DNA from: Escherichia virus TH41 | DNA length: 64,000 nucleotides | Direction: 5' to 3' (one strand) | Sequence record: MT446412.1 | Shown: one piece after another, positions 4,611 through 21,170 of the stretch | How positions within the stretch are numbered: the first letter of the stretch is position 1 | How the letters are laid out: each line of letters starts with the position of its first letter | Translations under genes and position numbers: made by a program | Notes under the pieces: model-generated | Databases searched by the model: none | What the model was told of the DNA's origin: nothing | Seen by the model: the letters and a program-made list of their open reading frames with translations, nothing else

Positions 4611-5179
4611 GTCTCTTTGATGATGACGTTCAATTAAACGAACATGAGGTTGCGTGGAAATCACGCGACTTTAACAAAATTCAGGAATTGTCCGATTCAT
4701 ACAAAGAGAAAGCAGAAAATGAATTGTTCGCGATTCTTAACGACATAACCGTTAGCAAAAAACCACGGAACCTGATTCAATCGGAAAACTACAATAAATT
4801 CTGGCTGGATAACGCATTGAGTCAACATGTTGATTGCATCATGCAGGTGAACGTGATGAACTTAATCGGTTCCGGGTTAACAGACCAGCAGCATTATAAT
4901 TATTTGCTGCATGCAGTTCCGCAAGGTAAGCGTTACGGCAAATGGGCGAAGGCTGAACCGGATGTAGTCAACGTCCAGCTTGTGCTCAAGCTTTTAATGA
5001 AATATTATACAATTAATGCAGATGATGCTTTGATGTATATGGAAACATTGAAAGTCAAAGGTAGTCTTAAAGATGTTTTGAAAAAGACAAAAGGTCTGGT
5101 AACGGATGAATTCTTAAAGACCGTTACCAGTAATGTGAAAGAACAAAAAGAAATTAAAAAACAAATATTGGAATGGTAA
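4601..5179 (+). CDS. 62: clamp loader small subunit gp62
   Basis: 192 aa, start overlaps gp44 stop; size and position as T4 gp62. Confidence 0.85.
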   Translation: MAVSLFDDDVQLNEHEVAWKSRDFNKIQELSDSYKEKAENELFAILNDITVSKKPRNLIQSENYNKFWLDNALSQHVDCIMQVNVMNLIGSGLTDQQHYNYLLHAVPQGKRYGKWAKAEPDVVNVQLVLKLLMKYYTINADDALMYMETLKVKGSLKDVLKKTKGLVTDEFLKTVTSNVKEQKEIKKQILEW

Positions 5180-5180
5180 A

Positions 5181-5549
5181 ATGATTGAAATTACATTAAA
5201 GCAACCTGAAGACTTCCTGAAAGTTAAAGAAACTCTGACCCGTATGGGCATCGCAAATAATAAAGACCGTGTGCTGTACCAGAGCTGCCACATCCTCCAA
5301 AAGCAAGGTCGTTATTATATTGTTCACTTCAAAGAAATGCTGCGCATGGATGGTCGTCAGGTTGATATTGACGGTGAAGACTATCAGCGCCGTGATTCCA
5401 TCGCCCAACTGCTTGAAGACTGGGGCTTAATCGCTATCAAAGAAGAAGAGCATAATGAATTGTTCGCAGTAACAAATAACTTCCGTGTTATTTCATTCAA
5501 ACAAAAAGACGACTGGAAGCTCGTAGCCAAATATACAATTGGTAATTGA
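5181..5549 (+). CDS. regA: translational repressor RegA
   Basis: 122 aa; MIEITLK..VLYQSCHILQK..FRVISFKQK..KYTIGN matches T4 RegA. Confidence 0.93.
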   Translation: MIEITLKQPEDFLKVKETLTRMGIANNKDRVLYQSCHILQKQGRYYIVHFKEMLRMDGRQVDIDGEDYQRRDSIAQLLEDWGLIAIKEEEHNELFAVTNNFRVISFKQKDDWKLVAKYTIGN

Positions 5550-5550
5550 T

Positions 5551-5766
5551 ATGAAGCATGAAATTGAAACATGTGAACGCCTTAAAGAAGTATATGGACT
5601 TTCCCCAACTCAAACTATTTTTGACCTTTCCGAAGAACTTCAAATAGAATTTCAAAAGGAACTCAATAAATTATTGCATCCTGGACAGAGAGTCTTCCAG
5701 GCTATGGTTAGAACTAAAGATGAAAATGGTAATCCGACCATCGAACGTCGTACAATAGAAATTTAA
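5551..5766 (+). CDS. hypothetical protein (71 aa)
   Basis: ORF 5539..5766 with ATG at 5551 directly after regA stop. Confidence 0.5.
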   Translation: MKHEIETCERLKEVYGLSPTQTIFDLSEELQIEFQKELNKLLHPGQRVFQAMVRTKDENGNPTIERRTIEI

Positions 5767-5771
5767 AGCAA

Positions 5772-5790
5772 AGGGACTTCGGTCCCTTTT
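5772..5790 (+). terminator. intrinsic terminator (TTCG tetraloop)
   Basis: GGGAC-TTCG-GTCCC followed by TTTT; a TATAAT follows at about 5795. Confidence 0.7.
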
Positions 5791-5851
5791 GTAGTATAAT
5801 AGCGTCAAGTCATAAAACAAAAGTCAATCACTCGACTATAAAGGAAATCAA

Positions 5852-8566
5852 ATGCAAGAATTTTATTTAACTATCGAACAAATCGGTGACAACCTACTCG
5901 AACGATATATTGACAAGAATGGTCATGAACGTGTTCGTGAAATCCCTTATGCTCCATGCTTGTTTATGCACGCCCGCGAAGACCAAGCTGCAAAGTATAC
6001 AGACATCTATAATAAAGGTTGTGTGAAAAAAGAATTCGATTCCATGCGTGATGCATCCCAGTGGATGAAGCGAATGAATGACATGGGTCTCGAAGCTATG
6101 GGTATGGACGACTTTAAACTCGCATACTTGTCCGACCGTTACCCACACGAAATCAAATATGATTCAAGTAAAATCCGTGTTGCTAACTTCGATATCGAGG
6201 TGACATCTCCTGATGGGTTCCCTGAACCGTCTGAAGCACGTCACCCTATTGACGCCCTGACGCACTATGATTCGGTAGACGATAAATTCTATGTCTTTGA
6301 CCTTTTGGGCTCACCATACGCCACTGTGGAGCAATGGTCTATTGATATTGCTGCTAAGCTGCAGGAAGACGGTGGTGATGAAGTCCCGGAAGAAATCCTG
6401 GAAAAAATTGTTTATATGGCTTTCGATTCAGAAGAAGAAATGCTCCAGCAGTATTTGGTATTCTGGAACGAGAAAACTCCGGTTATGTTAACTGGTTGGA
6501 ACATCGAGAAGTTTGATATTCCATATATCTACAACCGCCTTAAAAATGTATTTGGTGAAGCTACAGCAAAACGTCTGAGCCCACATCGTCGTACAAAAGT
6601 TAAGGTCATTAACAACGGCTTTGGCGAAGAACAAGAAATCATTCAGATTCTGGGTATCTCTGTTCTGGATTATCTGGACCTGTATAAAAAGTTCAGCTTC
6701 ACAAACCAACCGTCTTATTCGTTGGATTATGTTGCGGAATCTGAACTGGGTGTTGGTAAACTCCCGTATGATGGCCCGATTTCTAAACTGCGCGAATCAA
6801 ATCACCAGCGGTATATTTCTTATAACATCATCGACGTTTATCGTGTTGTGCAGATTGACCGTAAGCGACAGTTTATTAACCTGAGTCAGTCAATGGGTTA
6901 TTACGCAAAAATGCAGATTCAGTCTGTATTCAGCCCAATCAAAACTTGGGATGCGATTATCTTTAACAGCTTGAAGACTCAAAACAAAGTTATTCCGGAA
7001 ACCAAATCGCATGTTCGCCAATCGTTCCCTGGTGCATTTGTTAAGGAACCTATTCCGAACGCATACAAATATGTAATGAGCTGTGACTTAACATCTCTGT
7101 ATCCGAGCATCATCCGACAGATTAACATCAGTCCAGAAACGATTGCCGGGTCATTTGCGCCAGCCCAGATGTATGAATACATCGCAGGAACTGCTGACCG
7201 TCCATCTGATACATTTAGTTGTGCTCCAAATGGTATGATGTATTTTAAAGATGTTGCGGGTATTATTCCGACAGAAGTCACCAAGGTGTTTAATCAGCGT
7301 AAAGAGCACAAAGGCTATATGCTTGCGGCTCAACGTAATGGTGAACTGATTAAGGAAGCTCTGCGTAATCCAGGAACTGGCACAACCGAACCAGAAGTTG
7401 ATTATCGTCATGACTTTGATGACAATATGAAAACGGCCCTGCATGGTCTGAATCAAACAGTCCTAAATGGTATGCTGTACAAAGCGCAGATGGAAGAAGT
7501 TGCAGGCATGACCGCACAGATTAACCGTAAACTGCTTATCAACAGTTGTTATGGCGCTCTGGGTAATATCTGGTTCCGTTACTTTGACCTGCGAAATGCA
7601 ACCGCGATTACATCTTTCGGACAACTTGCACTGCAGTGGATTGAGCGTAAAGTTAACGAATACTTCGATAGTGTTTGTGGTACAAGCGGTGAAACTTATG
7701 TGTTCTATGGCGATACTGACTCCATTTATATCCAGTGCGATAACCTGATTAAAAAGGTTGGTGGCGAATCTAAATTCCGCGATACAAACCACCTGGTTGA
7801 CTTCATGGACAAGTTTGCGAAAGACCGTCTGGAACCGGCAATCGATAAAGCTTTCCGTGAGCTGGCTGAATACATGAACAACAAACAGCACCTTATGTTT
7901 ATGGACCGTGAGGCGATTGCATGTCCTCCGCTGGGTTCGAAGGGTGTGGGTGGATTCTGGACGGCGAAGAAGCGTTATGCGTTGAACGTGTACGATATGG
8001 AAGGCACACGTTATGCTGTTCCAAAATTGAAAATCATGGGTCTGGAAACTCAAAAGTCGAGTACTCCAAAGGCATGTCAGAAAGCTCTGAAAGAATGCAT
8101 CCGCCGTATGCTGCAAGAAGGTGAAGAATCTCTGCAGACATACTTCAAGGAATTCAATAAGGAATTTAATGAGCTTAACTACATGACCATCGCAGGGGTA
8201 TCATCGGTTAACAACATCCAGAAATATAATGAAGGTGGTTTCCCTGGATTTAAGTGCCCGGCTCATATCAAAGGTGTGCTTGCATATATGCGTGCAACTA
8301 AAGGTCTGAAGACTGTTCCGCAAATCATGGAAGGGGAAAAGGTGTATGTACTTCCTCTTAAAGTCGGCAACCCATTTGGTGAAACCGTGATTGCATGGCC
8401 ATCAGGGATTGAACTCCCGATTGAAATTCGTGACCAAGTCTTGCAGTGGATGGACTACAACACACTGTTCCAGAAGACTTTTGTCAAACCGTTAACAGGT
8501 TTCTCTGAAGCTGCAAAGGTTGATTACGAAAAGAAAGCAACTCTTTTTGATATGTTTGACTTTTAA
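5852..8566 (+). CDS. 43: DNA polymerase gp43 (family B)
   Basis: 904 aa; exonuclease and polymerase motifs (FDIE, YGDTDS); C-terminal clamp-binding tail TLFDMFDF. Confidence 0.95.
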   Translation: MQEFYLTIEQIGDNLLERYIDKNGHERVREIPYAPCLFMHAREDQAAKYTDIYNKGCVKKEFDSMRDASQWMKRMNDMGLEAMGMDDFKLAYLSDRYPHEIKYDSSKIRVANFDIEVTSPDGFPEPSEARHPIDALTHYDSVDDKFYVFDLLGSPYATVEQWSIDIAAKLQEDGGDEVPEEILEKIVYMAFDSEEEMLQQYLVFWNEKTPVMLTGWNIEKFDIPYIYNRLKNVFGEATAKRLSPHRRTKVKVINNGFGEEQEIIQILGISVLDYLDLYKKFSFTNQPSYSLDYVAESELGVGKLPYDGPISKLRESNHQRYISYNIIDVYRVVQIDRKRQFINLSQSMGYYAKMQIQSVFSPIKTWDAIIFNSLKTQNKVIPETKSHVRQSFPGAFVKEPIPNAYKYVMSCDLTSLYPSIIRQINISPETIAGSFAPAQMYEYIAGTADRPSDTFSCAPNGMMYFKDVAGIIPTEVTKVFNQRKEHKGYMLAAQRNGELIKEALRNPGTGTTEPEVDYRHDFDDNMKTALHGLNQTVLNGMLYKAQMEEVAGMTAQINRKLLINSCYGALGNIWFRYFDLRNATAITSFGQLALQWIERKVNEYFDSVCGTSGETYVFYGDTDSIYIQCDNLIKKVGGESKFRDTNHLVDFMDKFAKDRLEPAIDKAFRELAEYMNNKQHLMFMDREAIACPPLGSKGVGGFWTAKKRYALNVYDMEGTRYAVPKLKIMGLETQKSSTPKACQKALKECIRRMLQEGEESLQTYFKEFNKEFNELNYMTIAGVSSVNNIQKYNEGGFPGFKCPAHIKGVLAYMRATKGLKTVPQIMEGEKVYVLPLKVGNPFGETVIAWPSGIELPIEIRDQVLQWMDYNTLFQKTFVKPLTGFSEAAKVDYEKKATLFDMFDF

Positions 8567-9026: not shown

Positions 9027-9530
9027 ATGAAAAAGTTAGCTATCGCAGCTGTTATGCTGCTATCTGGTTGTGCTTACCAGGGTGATGTTGTTAATGCCAA
9101 CGAGATTGGTAAAGCGCGAATTGCTGCAGACCGTCAGGTGCATAATGGTTCCTTTGATTTCAAAGGTGGTACTGGACTTATCTACAAACGCGACAACAAT
9201 CAATGTGGAAACAACTGCGCGAAATATGCTCAACAAGAAATTGAGTACAAACGCGAGCAAGCTGCGAAGCATGACGAAATCATTGCCAAGCTGGAAGCAG
9301 AAACCAAGCGACAAAATGACCTGGACACTGTTAACCAGATTTCACAGGTCTGCATGTCATACATCAATATGCAGATAAACATCATGCGCGCAGAAGCTTA
9401 TCAGGCAGCGGAGATGGGTTCTCCAAAAGCTAATGAGTACCGCGATATGTATCAGCGTTCTGCTCAAAACCGTCTGAGCTATATTAATAAATGTGTAGCT
9501 AAAGAGAAAGCACGCCAAGGTATTAACTGA
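9027..9530 (+). CDS. putative lipoprotein (167 aa)
   Basis: Signal peptide with lipobox LLSGC; coiled-coil-rich; occupies the slot between imm and uvsX. Confidence 0.6.
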   Translation: MKKLAIAAVMLLSGCAYQGDVVNANEIGKARIAADRQVHNGSFDFKGGTGLIYKRDNNQCGNNCAKYAQQEIEYKREQAAKHDEIIAKLEAETKRQNDLDTVNQISQVCMSYINMQINIMRAEAYQAAEMGSPKANEYRDMYQRSAQNRLSYINKCVAKEKARQGIN

Positions 9531-9721: not shown

Positions 9722-10900
9722 ATGTCTATTGCAGATTTGAAATCCCGTTTGATTAAAGCTTCTACATCCAAAATGACTGCGACTCTTACCAAGTCCAAGT
9801 TCTTTAATGATAAAGATGTAGTTCGTACAAAAATCCCGATGCTGAACATTGCAATCAGCGGTGCACTAGATGGTGGTATGCAGTCAGGTTTGACTATTTT
9901 TGCTGGTCCGTCAAAACACTTTAAATCCAATATGGGTTTAACGATGGTCTCTGCATATATGAACAAATACCCCGATGCAATCTGTTTGTTCTATGATTCA
10001 GAATTTGGTATCACAGAAGCATATCTTCGTGCAATGAAAGTTGACCCGGAACGTGTTATCCATACACCAATCCAGTCGGTTGAACAATTGAAAGTTGATA
10101 TGGTTAACCAGCTTGAAGCAATTGAGCGTGGTGAAAAAGTCATTATCTTTATTGACTCAATCGGTAACATGGCGTCGAAAAAAGAAACAGAAGATGCGAT
10201 GAACGAAAAAGTTGTTGGCGATATGACTCGTGCTAAATCCCTGAAATCTCTGTTCCGTATTGTTACCCCATATTTTAGTATCAAGGATATTCCTTGTGTC
10301 GCGGTTAACCATACAATTGAGACGATTGAGATGTACAGCAAAACCGTTATGACCGGTGGCACAGGTGTTATGTATTCCGCAGACACCGTATTCATTATCG
10401 GCAAACGCCAGATTAAAGAAACTGGTAAAGAACTTGAAGGCTTCCAATTTGTTCTGAACGCCGAAAAATCTCGTATGGTCAAAGAGAAAAGTAAATTCTT
10501 CATTGATGTAAAATTCGATGGGGGTATTGACCCGTATTCTGGCCTGCTTGATATGGCAATGGAAATCGGATTTGTGGTGAAACCAAAAGTTGGTTGGTAT
10601 AACCGTGAATATCTTGATGTTGAGACCGGCGAAATGGTCCGCGAAGAAAAATCATGGCGCGCAAAAGATACTAACTGCACCGAATTCTGGGGTCCGCTGT
10701 TCAAGCACGAACCTTTCCGTGATGCAATTAAACGCCATTACCAACTGGGTGCAATCGATAGCAATGCTGTTGTTGATGCTGAAGTTGATGCGCTTATTGC
10801 CTCCAAGGTTGAAAAATACTCTGCTCCTGAAGGTAAGACAAAACCGTCCGCTGCAGATATCGAAAACGATTTAGATATGATGGAAGACCTTGATGAATGA
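9722..10900 (+). CDS. uvsX: RecA-like recombinase UvsX
   Basis: 392 aa; Walker A GPSKHFKS; near-collinear match to T4 UvsX. Confidence 0.95.
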   Translation: MSIADLKSRLIKASTSKMTATLTKSKFFNDKDVVRTKIPMLNIAISGALDGGMQSGLTIFAGPSKHFKSNMGLTMVSAYMNKYPDAICLFYDSEFGITEAYLRAMKVDPERVIHTPIQSVEQLKVDMVNQLEAIERGEKVIIFIDSIGNMASKKETEDAMNEKVVGDMTRAKSLKSLFRIVTPYFSIKDIPCVAVNHTIETIEMYSKTVMTGGTGVMYSADTVFIIGKRQIKETGKELEGFQFVLNAEKSRMVKEKSKFFIDVKFDGGIDPYSGLLDMAMEIGFVVKPKVGWYNREYLDVETGEMVREEKSWRAKDTNCTEFWGPLFKHEPFRDAIKRHYQLGAIDSNAVVDAEVDALIASKVEKYSAPEGKTKPSAADIENDLDMMEDLDE

Positions 10901-11234
10901 TATCGATTTATCTGATTTAGATAATTTCGAGAAAGATGCGGAGGGAGCTAAGGCTCCTTCTGTACCTTACTACGAAAAAAGTTTGGAGATTATCCGGCAA
11001 TCCATGGGAACCGTACGACAGGAAATTCTGTTATCACTCCCTGATGGGTCCAGTCACATTGTGTACGTAACCGGAATTAAAATTGAACCATCTGGAAAAG
11101 TTTCAGTTGATTTCGGCACCCCTTCTGAAGACCGCAAAGCGGAGCTTGCAGTGCATGTAGAAAAGTGTGTTACAATGCAAATACAAGATGAAATTGATAA
11201 GATTAAAATGAAAAAGAGGTGGTGGAAGTGGTAG
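10890..11234 (+). CDS. gp40-like protein (114 aa)
   Basis: Size and position between uvsX and 41 as T4 gene 40; sequence not independently recognised. Confidence 0.45.
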   Translation: MMNDIDLSDLDNFEKDAEGAKAPSVPYYEKSLEIIRQSMGTVRQEILLSLPDGSSHIVYVTGIKIEPSGKVSVDFGTPSEDRKAELAVHVEKCVTMQIQDEIDKIKMKKRWWKW

Positions 11235-12658
11235 AAACTATTTTATCCCAGCTACTCTTTAACAAGGAATATTTTGTTAAAGTCTGGCCATATCTGAATA
11301 ACACATATTTTGAAAAGGGTCCAGCAAAGACCCTTTTTAATACGATTAACGAACACGTAAAAGAATATCAAGCGGTACCAACTAAGACTGCACTTGATAT
11401 CGCGCTCGACAGTTCTGACCTTTCTGAAGTCGAATATGAAGGCACAAAGAAACTCTTAGGAGTCCTGGCCGATACTCCAGAAGACCAGGAATGGTTGGTT
11501 AAAGAAACCGAGAAGTATGTACAGAAGTCTGCGATGTTCAATGCCACATCCAGGATTATCGAAATCCAGAGCAATGCCGAACTTCCGAAAGATAAACGTG
11601 ATAAACGAATCCCGGATATTGGTGCTATCCCTGACATCATGCGCGATGCATTGTCTATCTGTTTTGACTCTGCTCTGGGCCATGACTGGTTAAACGATTA
11701 CGAAGCTCGATTCCAGACTTATCTGAACAAATCGAAGAAGGTTCCGTTCCGTATTAACATCCTGAATAAAATCACGAAGGGCGGGGTTGAGTACGGTACA
11801 GAGAACGTTTTACTGGCCGGGACGAACGTCGGCAAATCCCTTGGACTTTGTTCGCTGGCGGCTGACTATCTTCAGACTGGTCATAATGTGCTTTATATAA
11901 GCATGGAAATGGCTGAAGAAGTATGTGCCAAACGTATTGATGCCAACTTGCTGGATGTGTCTCTGGATGATATTGATGAAGGTCATGTGTCATGGGCGGA
12001 ATACAAAAGTAAGATGGAAAAATGGCGTGCAGCCGGGACCCTTGGGACTCTGAAGATAAAACAATATCCAACTGGCGGTGCTCATGCGGATACCTTCCGT
12101 GCATTGCTGAATGAATACAAACTGAAGCAAGGGTTTGTGCCGGATGTGATTATTGTTGACTACCTGGCAATCTGTGCAAGCTCAAGACTGAAAACGTTTA
12201 CCGAAAACAGTTACGGCCTGATTAAGATGGTTGCAGAAGAACTTCGTGGTCTGGCGGTCGAGAAAAATGTGGTCCTGTGGACTGCAGCGCAGACAACCAG
12301 GGGTGCGAACGTTGCAGCTGAGATTGATATGGCTGACATCGCTGAATCTTTTGGTATTGCTCACACGGCCGACTTTATGTTGGGTGTTGTTGAGACCGAA
12401 GAATTCGCTCAAATGGGACTACAGTTAATCAAACAGCTTAAGTCTCGTTACGGCGATAAGAACTACTATAATAAATTCAAGATGGGTGTTAAGAAAGGTA
12501 ATCAGCGCTGGTACGAGGTTGATGATGATTCAGCTCCTAAACAAGGCCCTACGGTTAAAGAAGCCACTGGTGAGATGAATCGCCAGGCTGAAATGAATAG
12601 ACAAACCAGGGTCAACAGGAGCGACCTGGACGACCTTGCTGCTCAAATGAAATTCTAA
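11219..12658 (+). CDS. 41: replicative DNA helicase gp41 (DnaB family)
   Basis: Walker A GTNVGKS, DnaB-like blocks matching T4 gp41; start probably GTG at 11228 (M-V-E-T-I-L) overlapping gp40 stop. Confidence 0.93.
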   Translation: MVEVVETILSQLLFNKEYFVKVWPYLNNTYFEKGPAKTLFNTINEHVKEYQAVPTKTALDIALDSSDLSEVEYEGTKKLLGVLADTPEDQEWLVKETEKYVQKSAMFNATSRIIEIQSNAELPKDKRDKRIPDIGAIPDIMRDALSICFDSALGHDWLNDYEARFQTYLNKSKKVPFRINILNKITKGGVEYGTENVLLAGTNVGKSLGLCSLAADYLQTGHNVLYISMEMAEEVCAKRIDANLLDVSLDDIDEGHVSWAEYKSKMEKWRAAGTLGTLKIKQYPTGGAHADTFRALLNEYKLKQGFVPDVIIVDYLAICASSRLKTFTENSYGLIKMVAEELRGLAVEKNVVLWTAAQTTRGANVAAEIDMADIAESFGIAHTADFMLGVVETEEFAQMGLQLIKQLKSRYGDKNYYNKFKMGVKKGNQRWYEVDDDSAPKQGPTVKEATGEMNRQAEMNRQTRVNRSDLDDLAAQMKF

Positions 12659-12677
12659 AGACCTTCGGGTCTTTTTC
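12658..12677 (+). terminator. intrinsic terminator (TTCG tetraloop)
   Basis: AGACC-TTCG-GGTCT followed by TTTTT right after gene 41 stop. Confidence 0.65.
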
Positions 12678-12685
12678 ATTTAGAG

Positions 12686-12715
12686 GTTTACAACACCATA
12701 AAAAGGGTGTACTAT
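12686..12715 (+). promoter_or_regulatory. early promoter cassette
   Basis: GTTTACA, spacer hairpin ACACC..GGTGT, TACTAT; leader CATCAACTACTGATGAGG. Confidence 0.5.
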
Positions 12716-12746
12716 TATCCCATCAACTACTGATGAGGATAATAAA

Positions 12747-12995
12747 ATGTTATTAGTTAATGTGCAGTACCAGTTCAAATCTGAAGAAGCTCTCCAAAAG
12801 TATGCTGATATTTGTGAGCATAATAAAAGAACAGCTGCCATTGTTGGTCTGAAGCCTTTTAAAATTTTGGATTGCTCCTTGAACAGAGCAAGACGCTGGT
12901 GTAGTGTTGCCTGTCATGCTTCAGTTGAAGGGAATGATTATTTTTTCATTACTTTCAATGCACAAGATTTTCATTTAATTAATGAATTAAAATAG
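12747..12995 (+). CDS. hypothetical protein (82 aa)
   Basis: ORF with RBS, preceded by cassette promoter and leader. Confidence 0.55.
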   Translation: MLLVNVQYQFKSEEALQKYADICEHNKRTAAIVGLKPFKILDCSLNRARRWCSVACHASVEGNDYFFITFNAQDFHLINELK

Positions 12996-13024
12996 TGTAC
13001 AAGCCCCTTGTCTTAGGACATAAT
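12995..13024 (+). promoter_or_regulatory. early promoter cassette
   Basis: GTGTACA, 17 nt, CATAAT; leader CCATACTGAGTT. Confidence 0.6.
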
Positions 13025-13073
13025 GATTCCATACTGAGTTACACAATAAACCAACTGTTAAAAGGAAAACCAT

Positions 13074-13376
13074 ATGTTTAATCAAACCGATATGAACCGT
13101 TACTATTTTGGTCAGTTCGCTCGCCGTGATGAAAACTGTGCTGCTCTTATCGCATCAGGCATTCAAACTGGTAAATTAATAAAGCTCAAAAGCGATGTTC
13201 AACCTTCATCTGTTCGCAGCTCTCTTCGTGAGTATCTGCTTGCAGGCGGGGCAGTATATGTTATCGCTGAACCTTTTGTTAACGTGTGCGACGATTACAC
13301 AATTAGTGTGACTGTTATGCACCCAACTACTGGGAAAATTCGTTGTCTGACTATGCACAACTATGAGTTGGCGTAA
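13074..13376 (+). CDS. hypothetical protein (100 aa)
   Basis: ORF following the cassette promoter. Confidence 0.55.
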   Translation: MFNQTDMNRYYFGQFARRDENCAALIASGIQTGKLIKLKSDVQPSSVRSSLREYLLAGGAVYVIAEPFVNVCDDYTISVTVMHPTTGKIRCLTMHNYELA

Positions 13377-13383
13377 GTGAATA

Positions 13384-13406
13384 AAGGGGCTTACAGCCCC
13401 TTTTTC
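13384..13406 (+). terminator. intrinsic terminator fused to a -10/leader
   Basis: GGGGCT-TAC-AGCCCC followed by TTTTT, then TATAAT and leader CTATCAACTACTGGAG. Confidence 0.65.
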
Positions 13407-13444
13407 TTATGTTATAATGACTCTATCAACTACTGGAGAATAAA

Positions 13445-13762
13445 ATGAAAACCATTGATTGCAAGGCAGAATACAAAGTTTATTATCATGGGTCAAGTTC
13501 TAATGCTGGAATCCAAAATATGCTTTGTCCTCCTGATGCAACTGGTGTTCTGTCAGAAGTTGGGCGTAAGAAAAATTTAGGGCGTGTGTTTTTTACTGAA
13601 GATATTGGTTTGGCGCGTATCTATGCAGGAAGAGCAGCTCGCTCATATGGAGGAGAACCCCGTCTTTATCGTGTGATTGCACCTGTTGACGTGGTTTGTT
13701 TAAATGATACTAAAGGCGCAACAGTTTATCACGCTGACTGGGCCTTCTGTGAGGAAATCTAA
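13445..13762 (+). CDS. hypothetical protein with PARP/diphtheria-toxin-like H-G-S motif (105 aa)
   Basis: YYHGSSSNAGIQNM then GRVFFTEDIGLARIYAG pattern; see findings. Confidence 0.55.
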   Translation: MKTIDCKAEYKVYYHGSSSNAGIQNMLCPPDATGVLSEVGRKKNLGRVFFTEDIGLARIYAGRAARSYGGEPRLYRVIAPVDVVCLNDTKGATVYHADWAFCEEI

Positions 13763-13966
13763 ATGTATAAATTAGAGAACGTAGTATTTATTGGTTGGTT
13801 TGAAAATGGTAATATGTTTACCAAAGAAACCGCGCTGGATGTCAGTGACAAAAATATGATTGAATGGGTTACAGTGCAGTATGCGGAAGTGAATAATGCG
13901 CTGGTTAAAGCCTTTGTTAATGACAATAAAGTTTTTGAATATGATGCCCGCATTGAGGAAATCTAA
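13763..13966 (+). CDS. hypothetical protein (67 aa)
   Basis: ORF abutting the previous stop; shares NALVKAFVND block with the next ORF. Confidence 0.5.
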   Translation: MYKLENVVFIGWFENGNMFTKETALDVSDKNMIEWVTVQYAEVNNALVKAFVNDNKVFEYDARIEEI

Positions 13967-14308
13967 ATGACTTTTAATCCAGAAGACCGCGTAAAAGTAA
14001 CAATCAAAGTGAGTGCCGTTGGCGTTCCATCTTTTGAGCGCTCAAGTATGTTCCATCCCGCAGGTATTCACTGGTATGTTCAGAAGACTGCTGATAACTA
14101 TAATGCGCTTGTTGAAGCTTTTGTTGATGGCGAGCTAATCCATAAAGTAGACATGCGTAAGGGCACTGCATTGCGTAATCTTATCTTGACCGTTGAAGCT
14201 CAACTGGTAAATGAAGAAATCTGCCTTACTGATATTGAAGCAGCTCTTCATATTGCACGTGCTGAATATTACAAATTGACTGGTTTTTCAGTTGAAGGTG
14301 AAAAATAA
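13967..14308 (+). CDS. hypothetical protein (113 aa)
   Basis: ORF; NALVEAFVDG block paralogous to the previous ORF. Confidence 0.55.
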   Translation: MTFNPEDRVKVTIKVSAVGVPSFERSSMFHPAGIHWYVQKTADNYNALVEAFVDGELIHKVDMRKGTALRNLILTVEAQLVNEEICLTDIEAALHIARAEYYKLTGFSVEGEK

Positions 14309-14338
14309 GTGTACATCAAAGGGGTAATGCAGTATATT
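14309..14338 (+). promoter_or_regulatory. early promoter cassette
   Basis: GTGTACA, 17 nt, TATATT; leader CTATCAACTACTGAGGAG. Confidence 0.6.
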
Positions 14339-14366
14339 ATCCCTATCAACTACTGAGGAGATTGAA

Positions 14367-14660
14367 ATGAAAAAGTTATTAATCGCAGCAATTCTTACCG
14401 TAGCATCATGTGGTACAGCCCCAGTTACTGCTGGGCTTGATAAAGACCTTTGTGAGTGGTCCATGACTGCGGACCAGACTGATGTTGAACACCAGATTTA
14501 TGCTGACATCATGAACATTACTAAACGTGACCACCCAGATATGGTTAAAGAAGTATCTGACCAACTGGCTTCTGGTGACGTTATGCAGTATAACTATGTT
14601 CTGTATTGCGATGCTTCATTTGACAACAGCAAGATTGTTCAATGGGTTACAGGTGAATAA
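14367..14660 (+). CDS. putative lipoprotein (97 aa)
   Basis: Signal peptide with lipobox TVASC. Confidence 0.55.
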   Translation: MKKLLIAAILTVASCGTAPVTAGLDKDLCEWSMTADQTDVEHQIYADIMNITKRDHPDMVKEVSDQLASGDVMQYNYVLYCDASFDNSKIVQWVTGE

Positions 14661-14661
14661 A

Positions 14662-15102
14662 ATGATTAACAGAAATTTAGTTATCAAAAAACTTCGTTGT
14701 AAAAATCAAAATGCACAAGCATACAGGATGTTTTGGAGCGACGAACCCATTCAATACCTGGGTTATTTTCTTGTTGATAGTGATAATAGAATTACGTTTG
14801 CTCATAAACTTCTTAACAAAGAATTAAACCATTGGCAAGAACTTATTGCGGTCAAGTCTAAATTATTTTCGCGCAATACAATGCACCAATTGGTTTATTT
14901 TTTCGCTGACGGTATTCCTGACAAGGTTGAGTTTGATGGGTTTGAATTTAAAGACATCACCCCTGATAATGAATTGAATGACAGTATTGTTAATATGGGT
15001 ATCCCGGGTAAGTACATCAAAAACAGTCTTTTGAAACTTCTGGAAACCCCTGTATATTCAGTTGACGACCAGATTTTTAATGCCTTCATGAAGCGAGATT
15101 AG
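14662..15102 (+). CDS. hypothetical protein (146 aa) with C-terminal DDQIFNAFMKRD tail
   Basis: ATG at 14662 (track ORF 14527 is a GTG-extended version overlapping the lipoprotein); tail shared with next ORF. Confidence 0.55.
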   Translation: MINRNLVIKKLRCKNQNAQAYRMFWSDEPIQYLGYFLVDSDNRITFAHKLLNKELNHWQELIAVKSKLFSRNTMHQLVYFFADGIPDKVEFDGFEFKDITPDNELNDSIVNMGIPGKYIKNSLLKLLETPVYSVDDQIFNAFMKRD

Positions 15103-15103
15103 T

Positions 15104-15463
15104 ATGAGTTATTATAATTTTCTGAATTTTGAACTGGCGAGCAATAATGATGGTAATGCTCATTATGAATTTCGTGAGCCACGGTTTAATCAAGCGATTG
15201 GTTATATTATCGTCAAAGATGATGTTATCATAAAGGCTCGCTCATTTATGGTAATGAATGGACCTTATGAAGATACTCGCGGCTATCCATTTGATAAAAA
15301 GAATGTGCGCGATTGTGCAGCATGGATAACCGGAAACCCCGAAATTGGGGTCATGATATCTACTGAAGCGAATGACATTCTGGAAGGGGTTTGGGCCAAA
15401 GCTCAAGAATCGTCTATTGCTATTGACGACCAGATTTTTAATGCCTTCATGAAACGAGGTTAA
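15104..15463 (+). CDS. hypothetical protein (119 aa) with C-terminal DDQIFNAFMKRG tail
   Basis: ORF; last about 36 nt nearly identical to the 3' end of the preceding gene. Confidence 0.55.
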   Translation: MSYYNFLNFELASNNDGNAHYEFREPRFNQAIGYIIVKDDVIIKARSFMVMNGPYEDTRGYPFDKKNVRDCAAWITGNPEIGVMISTEANDILEGVWAKAQESSIAIDDQIFNAFMKRG

Positions 15464-15464
15464 T

Positions 15465-15686
15465 ATGTTTGTTTTAACTCAATTTTCTAAAGCAACATAT
15501 AGCTACTCTTGTCAATGGGAAGTCTTCATTGATACACCGTCTCCCAAGTATGGAGTTTTCGGACGAGTAACTACACAAGCTTATGTTGCGCGACCAACCA
15601 AACGTCAGATTCGTAAGCTTAAAAAGGCGCATCGCCAACTGATTAAAAGAAGGGAACAATATGAGTGCAATGTGTACGGGCTCTAA
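15465..15686 (+). CDS. hypothetical protein (73 aa, basic C-terminus)
   Basis: ORF starting 2 nt after the previous stop. Confidence 0.45.
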   Translation: MFVLTQFSKATYSYSCQWEVFIDTPSPKYGVFGRVTTQAYVARPTKRQIRKLKKAHRQLIKRREQYECNVYGL

Positions 15687-15852
15687 GATTTCCGTATTCG
15701 AGATTTTTGAAGAATATGAAATCGTGTCGCAAGACCAAGAAGCAATCCATGTTATCGCTGATGATGGTGTTACCTGGATTATTCCGTTGTATCATGAAGA
15801 CACTTATGAAGTGACTGATGCAAATGGTGATAAAGCTGTCTTCGTTGTATAA
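15661..15852 (+). CDS. hypothetical acidic protein (63 aa)
   Basis: ORF overlapping the previous ORF end. Confidence 0.45.
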   Translation: MSAMCTGSKISVFEIFEEYEIVSQDQEAIHVIADDGVTWIIPLYHEDTYEVTDANGDKAVFVV

Positions 15853-15855
15853 ATA
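15848..15855 (+). promoter_or_regulatory. late-promoter-like TATAAATA box
   Basis: Exact TATAAATA 17 nt upstream of a small ORF ATG; overlaps the preceding stop codon. Confidence 0.4.
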
Positions 15856-15871
15856 GCGGAAAGGGGGTGTT

Positions 15872-16039
15872 ATGAAAACATTCAAAGATTTTATCAACGA
15901 AAATATGGTTGCCGGTGATGCAGGTGGAAATCCAACTAATATCGCAACAGGTACCACTTCCGGGGCAGTTGTCAATAAAGGCCCTGAACAAATCCCATCA
16001 AAAAAGCGTAAGAACAAAGACGATAAACCTACAGTATAA
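15872..16039 (+). CDS. small hypothetical protein (55 aa)
   Basis: ATG after GGGGGTG RBS; MKTFKDFINEN...KKRKNKDDKPTV; below the ORF-track size cutoff. Confidence 0.35.
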   Translation: MKTFKDFINENMVAGDAGGNPTNIATGTTSGAVVNKGPEQIPSKKRKNKDDKPTV

Positions 16040-16071
16040 TGGTCCTCCGGGGCCATTGAAATGAGGAAACT

Positions 16072-17100
16072 ATGTCATATATTGATAAAGAATTTGCGGT
16101 TAGAGCTTTATCGTATCAACCACGTTATAGAGAAGTCACCGGGAGCACATTTAAAGCAAACTGTCGTTGCAAGGTTTGTGGGGACTCCCAGAAAGATTCA
16201 CACAAGGCTCGATTCTGGGCGTATACTAATCCGGCTGATGGCGCGGTTTACGTGAAATGTTTTAACTGTGACTACTCCACGCATATAAGCAAATACATAA
16301 AAGAGTTTGAGCCGGATTTACACTGGGAATATATGGTTGAGAAGTATAAGGAGAATGCCTTTGGCAGACAACGTAATGAAGTTGCCGAAACTCCGAAAGA
16401 ACCAGAAAAAACTCCGGTTATCGAAGAGCTTGCTTTTTGTGAAAGACTCGATACTTTACCAGAAGCGCATCCTATAATTAAGTATGTAAAAAGTCGGTGT
16501 ATTCCTAGCAATGTTTGGAACCGGTTATGGTTTACAAACAAATGGCCTGCATTAGTTAACTCCGTTAATCCTGGGACGTATAAGAATGAAACGAATGAAC
16601 CACGCTTGGTTATTCCTATCTTCAACGGCAAAAAAGAAATCGAATCTTTCCAAGGACGAGCTCTTCGCAAAGATGCACCACAAAAATATATCACAATCAA
16701 AGCTCACCCAGAAGCTTCCAAAGTCTATGGTGTAGACAAGATTGATGAGCGCAAGCGCGTGTGGGTAATGGAAGGTCCGATTGATAGTTTGTTTATCCCT
16801 AACAGCATTGCGATAACTGGTGGAACATTGTCATTGGAAGCCGTTCCTTATCCAGAAACCAGAGTATGGGTAATGGACAACGAACCAAGACATCCGGATA
16901 CGATTAAACGTATGAAGAAGCTCGTTGAAGCTGGCGAAGCTGTTATGTTCTGGGACAATGCACCATGGCATACGAAAGACATAAATGAGATGGTTAAATC
17001 AGAAGGAGCAACCCCTGAACAAATCGAATCATATATGGCTGATAACGTTGCCCAAGGATTGATGGCGAGAATGCGACTTTCGAAGTACGCAAAAGTTTAG
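16072..17100 (+). CDS. 61: DNA primase gp61
   Basis: 342 aa as in T4; N-terminal zinc ribbon CRCKVCGDS...CFNCDYS plus TOPRIM-like core. Confidence 0.93.
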   Translation: MSYIDKEFAVRALSYQPRYREVTGSTFKANCRCKVCGDSQKDSHKARFWAYTNPADGAVYVKCFNCDYSTHISKYIKEFEPDLHWEYMVEKYKENAFGRQRNEVAETPKEPEKTPVIEELAFCERLDTLPEAHPIIKYVKSRCIPSNVWNRLWFTNKWPALVNSVNPGTYKNETNEPRLVIPIFNGKKEIESFQGRALRKDAPQKYITIKAHPEASKVYGVDKIDERKRVWVMEGPIDSLFIPNSIAITGGTLSLEAVPYPETRVWVMDNEPRHPDTIKRMKKLVEAGEAVMFWDNAPWHTKDINEMVKSEGATPEQIESYMADNVAQGLMARMRLSKYAKV

Positions 17101-17297
17101 GAAGGGATTCCGGTAAAGTAACCAATAATAGAATGGATATGTTCCATTGTGACCTGAGGTAAGTGCACCCCTTGTGTTGCGGCGATGGGTACAACCAGTA
17201 AGTTCCACAGGAAAACATCAAGAGCTAAAAAGCCCATGATGAGCTTCTTGTCTTTCTTACTGGTTAATTTCCAAATCTGATAGAATAATGTTCCCAT
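17097..17297 (-). CDS. small membrane protein (66 aa), paralog A
   Basis: Antisense ORF convergent on gene 61; GGTGG RBS; TM segment FLWNLLVVPIAATQGVHLP. Confidence 0.5.
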   Translation of the reverse strand: MGTLFYQIWKLTSKKDKKLIMGFLALDVFLWNLLVVPIAATQGVHLPQVTMEHIHSIIGYFTGIPS

Positions 17298-17305
17298 AGT
17301 TCCAC

Positions 17306-17503
17306 CTATATAAGGCCGATTAATGCCAGTGAAACATCTACAACTGATTCGAGCGCGACGACTGGTAATATAACACCATGTGCCAATGCAATAGGGGCAA
17401 CAATGAAATTCCAGAGTAGAACTAAACAGAGTACCGAAAGGACCAGAATCGTTCGCTTACGACTGCCTTTGATGGCTTGAATTAGACTAGATAGTTTTAG
17501 CAT
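17306..17503 (-). CDS. small membrane protein (65 aa), paralog B
   Basis: Strong AAGGAGGA RBS 7 nt upstream; TM segment LLWNFIVAPIALAHGVILP paralogous to the neighbour. Confidence 0.5.
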   Translation of the reverse strand: MLKLSSLIQAIKGSRKRTILVLSVLCLVLLWNFIVAPIALAHGVILPVVALESVVDVSLALIGLI

Positions 17504-21126: not shown

Positions 21127-21170
21127 GACACGTTAAGATGTTCCTATCAACTACTGATGAGGATAATAAA

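Follow-up and report, generated by a model that had tools for sequence, protein, structure and literature searches.

What lies between the helicase gene 41 and the primase gene 61 of Escherichia virus TH41, foreign cargo dropped into a replication operon or a local version of a region that its relatives also carry? The question arises from an earlier analysis that used only the letters of a 64,000-nucleotide (nt) stretch of sequence record MT446412.1 (the window; coordinates count from its first letter). This sequence-only reading singled out positions 12659-16071 as an island of about 13 small genes, none of them recognisable, set into an otherwise tight junction and possibly devoted to host takeover or anti-defence. 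We conclude, with a probability of roughly 85%, that the interval is the Gaprivervirus allele of a hyperplastic region found between genes 41 and 61 in all T-even phages, whose T4 version is known as the anti-toxin-antitoxin (anti-TA) island.

A Gaprivervirus allele of the anti-TA island

The window belongs to a T4-like coliphage of the genus Gaprivervirus. Its region 11000-17200 is 98.8% identical over the full length to Escherichia phage UPEC01 (Straboviridae, Tevenvirinae), 93-97% identical to VR20 and VR26 (Gaprivervirus) and to the relatives TH44, PSD2001 and phage 212, and about 78-79% identical to the JS98 group. All on the plus strand, uvsX (9722-10900), gene 40 (10890-11234) and gene 41 precede the interval and gene 61 follows it. 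The 3.4 kb gap is real: 3413 bp, packed with small plus-strand open reading frames (ORFs), separate gp41 from gp61. Rather than 13 genes we count 11 ORFs with homologs, O1 to O11 (Table 1), and because the intergenic gaps measure only 19-88 nt there is no space for two more.

The supposition that gene 61 follows gene 41 closely in T4 does not agree with the T4 reference record, where a gap of 1648 bp holds the five genes dmd (61.5), 61.4, sp (61.3), 61.2 and 61.1. Gene 61.4 has been renamed tifA, for ToxN inhibitor, and 61.2 adfA, for anti-DarT factor A (PMC9391042, PMC11257639). The slot as a whole has been named the anti-TA island, with Dmd directed against RnlA/LsoA, TifA against ToxN and AdfA against DarT, in the company of Spackle (Srikant et al. 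2022, PMC9391042). The window interval has the same flanks and strand, lies likewise downstream of uvsX-40-41, and shares with T4 the genes for Dmd, Spackle, a TifA-family protein and, directly upstream of gene 61, gp61.1, as well as proteins with the AdfA tail and early-type promoters upstream of dmd and sp. It is, however, twice as long and holds 11 genes instead of five. The slot behind dmd is taken by O5 rather than tifA, the TifA-family gene of the window standing four genes further downstream; full-length AdfA (208 amino acids, aa) is replaced by tail-bearing proteins of 146 and 119 aa; O1, O2, O3 and O10 are additional; and a late-promoter motif precedes 61.1 in the window and not in T4.

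Thus 6 of the 11 proteins supposed to be unrecognisable can be recognised, namely Dmd, Spackle, the TifA-family protein, gp61.1 and two proteins with the C-terminal tail of AdfA. O4 is 56% identical to T4 Dmd. O6 is Spackle: its Pfam match runs over positions 1-96 of 96, the Spackle structure 6x6o is found in the PDB with an expect value (E) of 2e-37, and it is 65% identical to T4 Sp. The N-terminus of O6, MKKLLIAAILTVASCG, is a signal peptide with a lipobox-like VASC, so that a signal of the kind predicted for a lipoprotein is indeed present, in a protein whose identity is Spackle. O9 scores nearly as high on the Pfam model DUF7279 (Table 1) as T4 TifA (72.7 bits) and is 41% identical to T4 gp61.4 (E 2e-12), including the basic core RPTKRQIR; the similar score and the common core together identify it as a TifA-family protein. 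O11, the gp61.1 homolog, is the most conserved member of the interval.

The JS98/Dhakavirus interval comprises eight genes, orf34-dmd-61.4-sp-orf30-orf29-orf28-61.1; 8 of the 11 window genes have counterparts in the same order with 80-97% amino-acid identity, O1, O2, O5 and O8 are missing, and a second TifA-family gene (61.4) stands in place of O5. Our comparison of 40 loci with syntenic 41 and 61 drew on IMG/VR contigs and reference phages and included the window. Across them the distance between the two genes varies from 200 bp to 7.3 kb, with mosaic content, and the alleles of Gaprivervirus rank among the longest with 2.7-3.4 kb. The sequence-only reading had counted two kinds of evidence as contrary to its proposal, conservation and synteny of the island across all relatives and homologs with known housekeeping roles. 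The first is found in part: gp61.1, Spackle and the TifA family recur in most loci (Table 1). Several of the proteins also have known relatives. The notion of anti-defence cargo in a variable slot holds up, given the T4 occupants of the same slot, its range of lengths and the differing content among sister phages; the notion of an insert into a tight junction does not. The island is ancestral to T-even phages and partly syntenic. It is of a type already described, and the window carries an enlarged, real and functional allele that is not novel as an island.

A small ADP-ribosyltransferase candidate upstream of dmd

O3 is the protein with the "HGS" motif that the letters alone had brought to attention. 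Its AlphaFold2 model is confident, with a mean predicted local distance difference test score (pLDDT) of 86.5 and a predicted template-modelling score (pTM) of 0.78, and a Foldseek search against viral models returns a 94-aa phage protein named rifampin ADP-ribosyl transferase at template-modelling scores of 0.72-0.79. An ADP-ribosyltransferase (ART) fold of the Arr/Tpt1 type is therefore confidently predicted. At the level of sequence the connection is transitive. O3 itself does not match the Pfam family Arr-ms (PF12120; cutoff 25 bits), the best result among 36 O3-family members being E 0.084 (2/36). An exhaustive search with an O3 profile gathered 243 representative proteins. Five proteins match the O3 profile with E 1e-24 to 1e-29 (P0137, P0154, P0168, P0132 and P0148), and the same stretches score 26.9-31.5 bits on Arr-ms, so that these intermediates link O3 to that family. 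The O3 domain of such relatives is often C-terminal or embedded in giant proteins, where it occurs alongside, among others, ART-PolyVal, NUDIX, GNAT plus Toprim, CHAP, DUF7178 and a 2H/Acb1-like phosphoesterase that is fused to a portal protein; this is the context of phage "polyvalent" conflict proteins.

Homologs of O3 form 115 clusters at 52-98% identity. Their named sources are all phages, among them Escherichia, Serratia, Pantoea, Acinetobacter and Vibrio phages; the single exception is a metagenome bin with the label Selenomonadaceae. A homolog is already called "ADP-ribosyl transferase" in one GenBank record. The genome of Vibrio phage henriette 12B8 (HQ316582; locus L083) measures 107 kb, encodes a single-subunit RNA polymerase and is not of the T4 type; it carries an O3-family gene at 5001-5297 among small early ORFs, beside an Imm_superinfect gene. 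Its presence in so unrelated a phage indicates that the gene moves horizontally between phage types.

The family alignment shows invariant H15-G16, E38, R41, N44, F49, T51, D53, Y60, A61 and R63, and among 49 diverse members H-G-[ST], F49, T51, Y60, E38, R41-K-K-N and G91 are invariant or nearly so; F50 is mostly F/Y. As in diphtheria toxin and PARP1, H-G-S and the aromatic-x-T-x-D ... Y pattern would be the NAD+-contacting part of the fold. E103 was considered as the catalytic glutamate and rejected, being conserved in the T4-like subfamily only. Arr (PF12120), Tpt1/KptA and AcrIF11 are small ARTs of the H-Y-[EDQ] clade, from which the O3 family, at only 96-106 aa, differs in several ways: there is no direct Arr-ms match to join it to Arr, it lacks the N-terminal RNA-binding lobe of Tpt1, and it has an invariant SE-GRKKN loop and no conserved acidic residue at a canonical position. 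Structure and conservation together suggest that O3 would bind NAD+ and act catalytically on a conserved host or nucleic-acid target; a role as stoichiometric inhibitor is unlikely.

Tentatively, O3 and its roughly 240 relatives (at 50% clustering) could be a family of active mini-ARTs serving as enzymatic counter-defence or as modifiers of RNA or DNA ends, with O5 and the tail proteins supplying new specificities against toxins for which no phage inhibitor has so far been assigned. In many T4-like phages the O3-family gene is translationally coupled to dmd and would be co-transcribed with it. Alternatively, O1, O2, O3, O7, O8 and O10 may be modulators of host takeover or RNA metabolism rather than counter-defence factors, a possibility that we hold with equal reserve. 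O3 might then attach ADP-ribose to host RNA polymerase, to translation factors or to RNA ends, in the manner of Alt/ModA/ModB and Tpt1-type enzymes, and O1, which is related to GoF, might affect transcript stability like GoF. In favor of this alternative, O3 keeps 73-74% identity even where that of gp41 and gp61 is down to 54-58%, a conservation equal to or above that of the adjacent replication genes, which points to a conserved substrate rather than to a partner in an arms race. O3-like domains also co-occur with 2H phosphoesterase, NUDIX and ART-PolyVal, and the invariant basic SE-GRKKN loop suggests a substrate bearing phosphate. Against it, every characterised neighbor in the T4 island is an anti-toxin or exclusion factor, and AcrIF11 demonstrates that a small ART can be a counter-defence enzyme (PMC12421852). 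The takeover and counter-defence readings are compatible and do not exclude each other.

It is rather improbable that O3 is a catalytically dead ART fold serving as a decoy or binder, for example by sequestering NAD+-derived signals or by mimicking or blocking DarT or CmdT, since H-G-[ST] and F/Y-x-T ... Y remain invariant across the 49 diverse members, domains of polyvalent proteins included, and this is the pattern to be expected of an active site. Arr, too, is not known to have the canonical glutamate.

A Dmd paralog with an added hairpin

The two paralog pairs noticed in the sequence are borne out as Dmd/O5 and O7/O8. For O5, Dmd ranked first in three independent searches (PHROG, E 3.3e-4; top match in the PDB; local BLAST), and a 30-nt stretch of the gene is 87% identical to dmd DNA. 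O5 has no Pfam match at E < 0.1 and falls below detection by the Pfam Dmd model (PF17587). Its predicted structure (pLDDT 73.8, from an alignment of three sequences that includes the window's own Dmd, with one of five AlphaFold2 models confident) shows a strand-strand-helix-strand-strand domain followed by two helices. In this predicted fold, residues ~9-62 superpose on all 57 Dmd residues (PDB 5HY3 chain B / 5I8J) at 1.1 A with 26% identity. Compared with Dmd, O5 adds a helical hairpin of about 50 aa, and its gene adjoins dmd. Among 5.8 billion proteins O5 forms a single cluster, to which a 62-63% identical variant in VR25 can be added; O5 is thus an invention at the level of the genus. Going by its modelled fold, O5 may target a different RnlA/LsoA-like toxin.

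The junctions within O3-dmd-O5 are TAAATG. The end of O3, GAGGAAATCTAAATG, provides the ribosome-binding site and start codon of dmd, and an identical 16-nt junction links dmd to O5. This exact direct repeat, TGAGGAAATCTAAATG, lies at 13750-13765 and 13954-13969 and brackets dmd precisely. Each copy holds the codons for the C-terminal EEI of the preceding gene product together with a ribosome-binding site and the start codon of the gene that follows. By analogy with the dmd-tifA amplifications of T4 (PMC9391042), microhomology between the copies could allow dmd to be gained, lost or amplified.

Two proteins that share the tail of AdfA

O7 and O8 both end in (V/I)DDQIFNAFMKR(D/G), the same tail as in T4 and RB69 AdfA, and their similarity to each other is confined essentially to these 13-14 aa. 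Homologs of O8 form only 8 close clusters. We read O8 as a short protein related to AdfA's C-terminal domain, on account of the match between AdfA and the O8 family in PHROG (Table 1) and of a collinear alignment of its body, stripped of the tail, with AdfA residues 93-188 (hhalign E 0.016). Smith-Waterman shuffle z-scores against AdfA are 1.4-2.7 for the O8 types and 2.2 for O7. The histidine at residue 164 of RB69 AdfA enables binding of DarT1 (PMC11257639); its T4 equivalent, H165, aligns in hhalign with Asp70 of O8, so the DarT1-binding histidine is replaced and the same target should not be assumed for O8. We also tested whether AdfA might be a fusion or split of O8-like and O7-like domains; the internal repeat in AdfA is weak (hhalign E 0.024; z 3.6).

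The coding of the tail differs at synonymous sites among phages, as seen between the window and an RB69 primer sequence, and the tail peptide itself is therefore under selection. The O7 frame is open upstream (14527-14661), overlapping the end of sp, and UPEC01 is annotated with a 168-aa form that starts inside sp. We used the 146-aa form, which starts directly behind the sp stop codon and agrees with the JS98 annotation. A PDB sequence search with O7 returned noise only. For O8, an apparent match of residues 59-104 to the CW_7 repeats of the Cpl-7-like lysozyme 5i8l (summed E 1.7e-6) was set aside as probably spurious: it consists of three copies of one weak match of ~20-45 aa, for which E is about 2 when they are taken singly, and a helical motif arising by chance is the probable cause.

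Early promoters, stem-loops and gene turnover

Four matches to sigma-70/T4-early-type promoters stand before O1, O2, O3 and sp, and promoter-like sites are enriched in the region (22, against 11.9 ± 3.1 in shuffles). The one before O3 is the top-scoring of the region, with 10/12 matches plus an extended -10. The leader ATCAACTACTG follows three of the four and occurs exactly 7 times in the window, where 1.2 copies would be expected. Its four copies outside the island, at 21146, 25284, 36347 and 56884 on the plus strand, probably mark other early-promoter cassettes in variable regions of the genome.

These elements resemble the PeSL cassettes and hyperplastic regions of T4-type phages, in which a stem-loop and an early promoter flank small variable ORFs (Arbiol 2010, PMC2839356; Comeau 2014, PMC4122927) and for which TTTACW-N17-TAYWAT is the promoter consensus in PST and T4 (PMC4122927). 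A stem-loop next to or overlapping an early promoter, with variable ORFs alongside, is found at 12657-12715 and at 13383-13418, and as in the PeSL systems, indels among sister phages begin or end at stem-loop or promoter elements. The island departs from that pattern in that a stem-loop adjoins only two of its four promoters and in that the O8 indel is bounded by a 45-nt repeat within coding sequence. The proposal that terminators and cassette promoters bound the island is right for the two hairpins and four promoter matches within it; at the gene 61 end no terminator was found. The late-promoter-driven ORF is O11, by a motif match: TATAAATA lies 16 nt before its start codon. The motif alone is not significant (8 in the window, 4.5 expected), but of 28 distinct upstream regions, which come from several genera, 12 have an exact copy in the corresponding place and others have near-matches.

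Sister phages reveal where the gene content changes. VR20, VR25 and VR26 all lack the O1 cassette (12682-13013), whose left edge lies just past the first stem-loop and whose right edge falls within the next promoter. The body of O8 (15107-15422) is absent from VR26 and JS98, exactly between the two tail repeats. In VR26 (L006, locus 6035-6601) the place of dmd-O5 (13775-14299 of the window) is taken by an ORF of 188 aa that has a signal peptide and matches nothing in Pfam, and this phage appears to be without any Dmd. VR25 (L007, locus 5942-6238) has an extra TifA-family gene of 98 aa between O5 and sp besides its O9-type copy; two TifA paralogs in one island thus occur in VR25 as in JS98. Synonymous divergence (dS) from VR25 is 0.24-0.27 for genes 41 and 61 and rises inside the island to 0.54 for O3, 0.70 for O7, 0.98 for sp, 1.8 for dmd and 2.2 for O5, a difference indicating that island alleles are exchanged by recombination.

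How the island may work

Judging from motifs and the precedent of T4, the island would be transcribed from early promoters as four units, O1, O2, O3-dmd-O5 and sp-O7-O8-O9-O10, with two of the four promoters placed within terminator-promoter (PeSL-type) cassettes and O3-dmd-O5 translationally coupled through their TAAATG junctions. The gene for gp61.1, behind its late motif, would follow after the early units. If the products act as their T4 and RB69 homologs do, Dmd would block RNase toxins of the RnlA/LsoA type, the TifA-family protein ToxN-type RNases, and Spackle the gp5 lysozyme of a superinfecting phage, while toxins of the DarT type or others would be bound by the AdfA-tail proteins. 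Most likely the extra cargo widens the same repertoire, O5 as a duplicated Dmd fold with a hairpin and O3 as a minimal NAD+-binding ART. Recombination, at promoter cassettes and also at short direct repeats such as the one that encodes the AdfA tail, changes the gene content.

Several observations weigh against this account. Neutralisation of RnlA/LsoA, ToxN and DarT is known only for the T4 and RB69 alleles (PMC9391042, PMC11257639), and the window products would share it by analogy. The promoters are consensus matches only. The near-universal distribution of gp61.1 and the late-type motif upstream of its gene suggest that it may be tied to gene 61 or to late functions and be unconnected with defence. 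On the Pfam AdfA model (PF23813; cutoff 27 bits, 211 positions), T4 gp61.2 scores 447 bits, O7 has no match, and O8 reaches 23 bits over positions 193-211 only, its last 19 aa; the body of O7 without the tail gives no significant match to AdfA (hhalign E 0.63; Smith-Waterman z 2.2). Deletion of adfA from T4 gives no phenotype (PMC11257639), and the target of AdfA is itself uncertain. O3 has no direct sequence match in Pfam, NCBIfam or the PDB, the latter searched by single sequence and by profile, and no acidic residue is conserved at the canonical position, invariant E38 lying in an unusual loop. The small alignment behind the O5 model belongs on the same side.

It is very unlikely that the island as a whole instead consists of foreign accessory genes that were inserted, in this lineage alone, into a 41-61 operon that is otherwise tight. 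The doubled length relative to T4, the restriction of O2 and O5 to the genus, and the behavior of O1 as an indel among sister phages would agree with an insertion. The T4 gap, however, itself holds five genes; 6 of the 11 window genes have relatives in the T4 interval, four of them clear (Dmd, Sp, the TifA family and 61.1) and two, O7 and O8, linked through AdfA (O7 by its tail only); 61.1, Sp and TifA are syntenic in most of the 40 loci; and the guanine-cytosine content of 0.34-0.42 is not distinct from the 0.40-0.46 of the flanks. Insertion is refuted for the island and survives only for the cassettes O1, O2 and O5. A reading of the ORFs, all or some, as remnants without function or as chance frames, which their shortness (55-146 aa) and the very narrow distribution of O2 and O5 might suggest, can be dismissed in view of purifying selection on O2-O11 (ratio of nonsynonymous to synonymous divergence, dN/dS, 0.04-0.38 against relatives; for O1 the comparison is possible only at saturating divergence), the tight packing with coupled stop/start junctions, and profile matches to phage families.

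Remaining ORFs and neighboring genes

Three further ORFs complete the interval. O1 occurs in 83 phage records; in one Tequatrovirus locus (L036) it too lies inside the 41-61 interval, and other Tequatrovirus matches have record positions, the only evidence in their case, consistent with that interval. O2 has no Pfam, NCBIfam or PDB match. O10 overlaps O9 by 26 nt, and a PDB sequence search with it found nothing. The NCBIfam scan of all island ORFs produced nothing meaningful, its sole listed match being to O10 at noise level (14.7 bits against a cutoff of 540), and Rfam and tRNA scans of the island found nothing.

Table 1. Features of the gene 41-61 interval and its flanks, with occurrence among the 40 compared loci
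Feature	Coordinates	Strand	Description and evidence	Loci (of 40)
gp41	11219..12658	+	Replicative helicase, left flank; 479 aa; annotated gp41 in UPEC01, phage 212 and JS98; 65% identical to T4 gp41	
Stem-loop	12657..12674	+	Terminator-like, directly after the gene 41 stop codon; stem-loop part of PeSL-type cassette; AAAGACC-TTCG-GGTCTTT, then T run	
Promoter before O1	12687..12715	+	T4-early-type, TTTACA-17-TACTAT, then leader ATCAACTACTG; fits PeSL consensus (PMC4122927)	
O1	12747..12995	+	82 aa; related to N-terminal half of T4 GoF; phrog_2980 E 4.5e-20; 33% identity over 63 aa to GoF, E 1e-7	4
Promoter before O2	12996..13024	+	Promoter-like, TGTACA-17-CATAAT; weakest of the four matches	
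O2	13074..13376	+	100 aa; Gaprivervirus-specific ORFan; 21 phage records, all at least 94% identical; dN/dS 0.13	6
PeSL-type cassette before O3	13383..13418	+	Terminator hairpin 13383-13403 overlapping early promoter CTTACA-17-TGnTATAAT 13390-13418; leader ATCAACTACTG begins 13425	
O3	13445..13762	+	105 aa; "HGS" protein; predicted minimal ART fold, Arr/Tpt1-like clade	17
O4 (Dmd)	13763..13966	+	67 aa; discriminator of mRNA degradation, antitoxin mimic against RnlA/LsoA; Pfam PF17587 74.1 bits, cutoff 27	17 (Dmd family)
O5	13967..14308	+	113 aa; predicted Dmd-fold N-terminal domain (~residues 9-62) and C-terminal helical hairpin; Gaprivervirus-specific	
Promoter before sp	14310..14338	+	Early promoter-like, TGTACA-17-TATATT plus leader ATCAACTACTG; consensus match	
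O6 (Spackle)	14367..14660	+	97 aa; periplasmic inhibitor of gp5 tail lysozyme, superinfection exclusion; Pfam PF25676 147 bits, cutoff 27	30
O7	14662..15102	+	146 aa; AdfA C-terminal tail on a body without assigned fold; JS98 orf30 type; phrog_8539; tail VDDQIFNAFMKRD also in T4 and RB69 AdfA	12
Tail repeat, first copy	15062..15106	+	45-nt direct repeat coding for the shared tail; second copy 15423-15467; 93% identity; copies bound the O8 indel	
O8	15104..15463	+	119 aa; putative short AdfA relative, AdfA C-terminal domain and tail; T4 AdfA 110-207 against phrog_4122 (O8 family) positions 23-118, E 1.8e-6	11 (AdfA/O8)
O9	15465..15686	+	73 aa; TifA family (ToxN inhibitory factor family, Pfam DUF7279); 72.4 bits, cutoff 24.5	25 (32 copies)
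O10	15661..15852	+	63 aa; JS98 orf28 / RB69 orf033c type; phrog_3249 E 3.4e-33; dN/dS 0.06-0.12	14
Late-promoter motif	15848..15855	+	T4-type, TATAAATA; upstream of O11	
O11 (gp61.1)	15872..16039	+	55 aa; 73% identical to T4 gp61.1; phrog_1823 E 6.6e-32	38
gp61	16072..17100	+	Primase, right flank; 342 aa; 61% identical to T4 gp61	

Directly after gene 61, where T4 has dam, the minus strand carries two small paralogous membrane-protein ORFs of 66 and 65 aa (17097-17297 and 17306-17503) with the hydrophobic cores ...LLVVPIAATQGVHLPQV... and ...FIVAPIALAHGVILPVV...; the label "DNA packaging ATPase" that UPEC01 gives to one of them looks wrong. On the other side, between imm and uvsX, a 167-aa ORF on the plus strand (9027-9530) carries a signal of the lipoprotein type (MKKLAIAAVMLLSGC). 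In T4 the corresponding part of the map holds beta-gt, gene 42 and segA; in the window it may be another variable slot. Several product names in the UPEC01 record (MW233709, features 5446-8035) find no support in any of our searches: O3 is labelled "clamp loaded subunit DNA polymerase", Spackle "periplasmic rIV", the TifA-like gene "nucleotidyltransferase" and gp61.1 "major capsid domain-containing protein", and the downstream modA.x genes carry the label "molybdenum ABC transporter".

Implications for T-even phages

The value of these results lies chiefly in a map: Dmd, Spackle, a TifA-type gene and gp61.1 are retained in the Gaprivervirus allele, and each other ORF receives a concrete and testable identity. 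The island opens no new category. A literature search of incomplete coverage brought up no published characterisation of the O3 family, of the O5 paralog or of the tail-bounded indel. The mini-ART O3 and the Dmd paralog O5 are worthwhile candidates.

Three features would be of interest in research on phage counter-defence. The tandem Dmd paralog with its added hairpin looks like natural diversification of an antitoxin mimic. The AdfA tail is common to three otherwise divergent types of protein, and the DNA that encodes it forms the borders of a gene indel, which together suggest a route for swapping in new specificities. Finally, many T4-like phages carry directly upstream of dmd a very small and very conserved ART of the Arr/Tpt1-like kind, whose absence from T4 may explain why it has been neglected; if its predicted activity is true, O3 would be the first enzyme in the anti-TA island and would add a new class of ART in T-even phages beside Alt, ModA and ModB.

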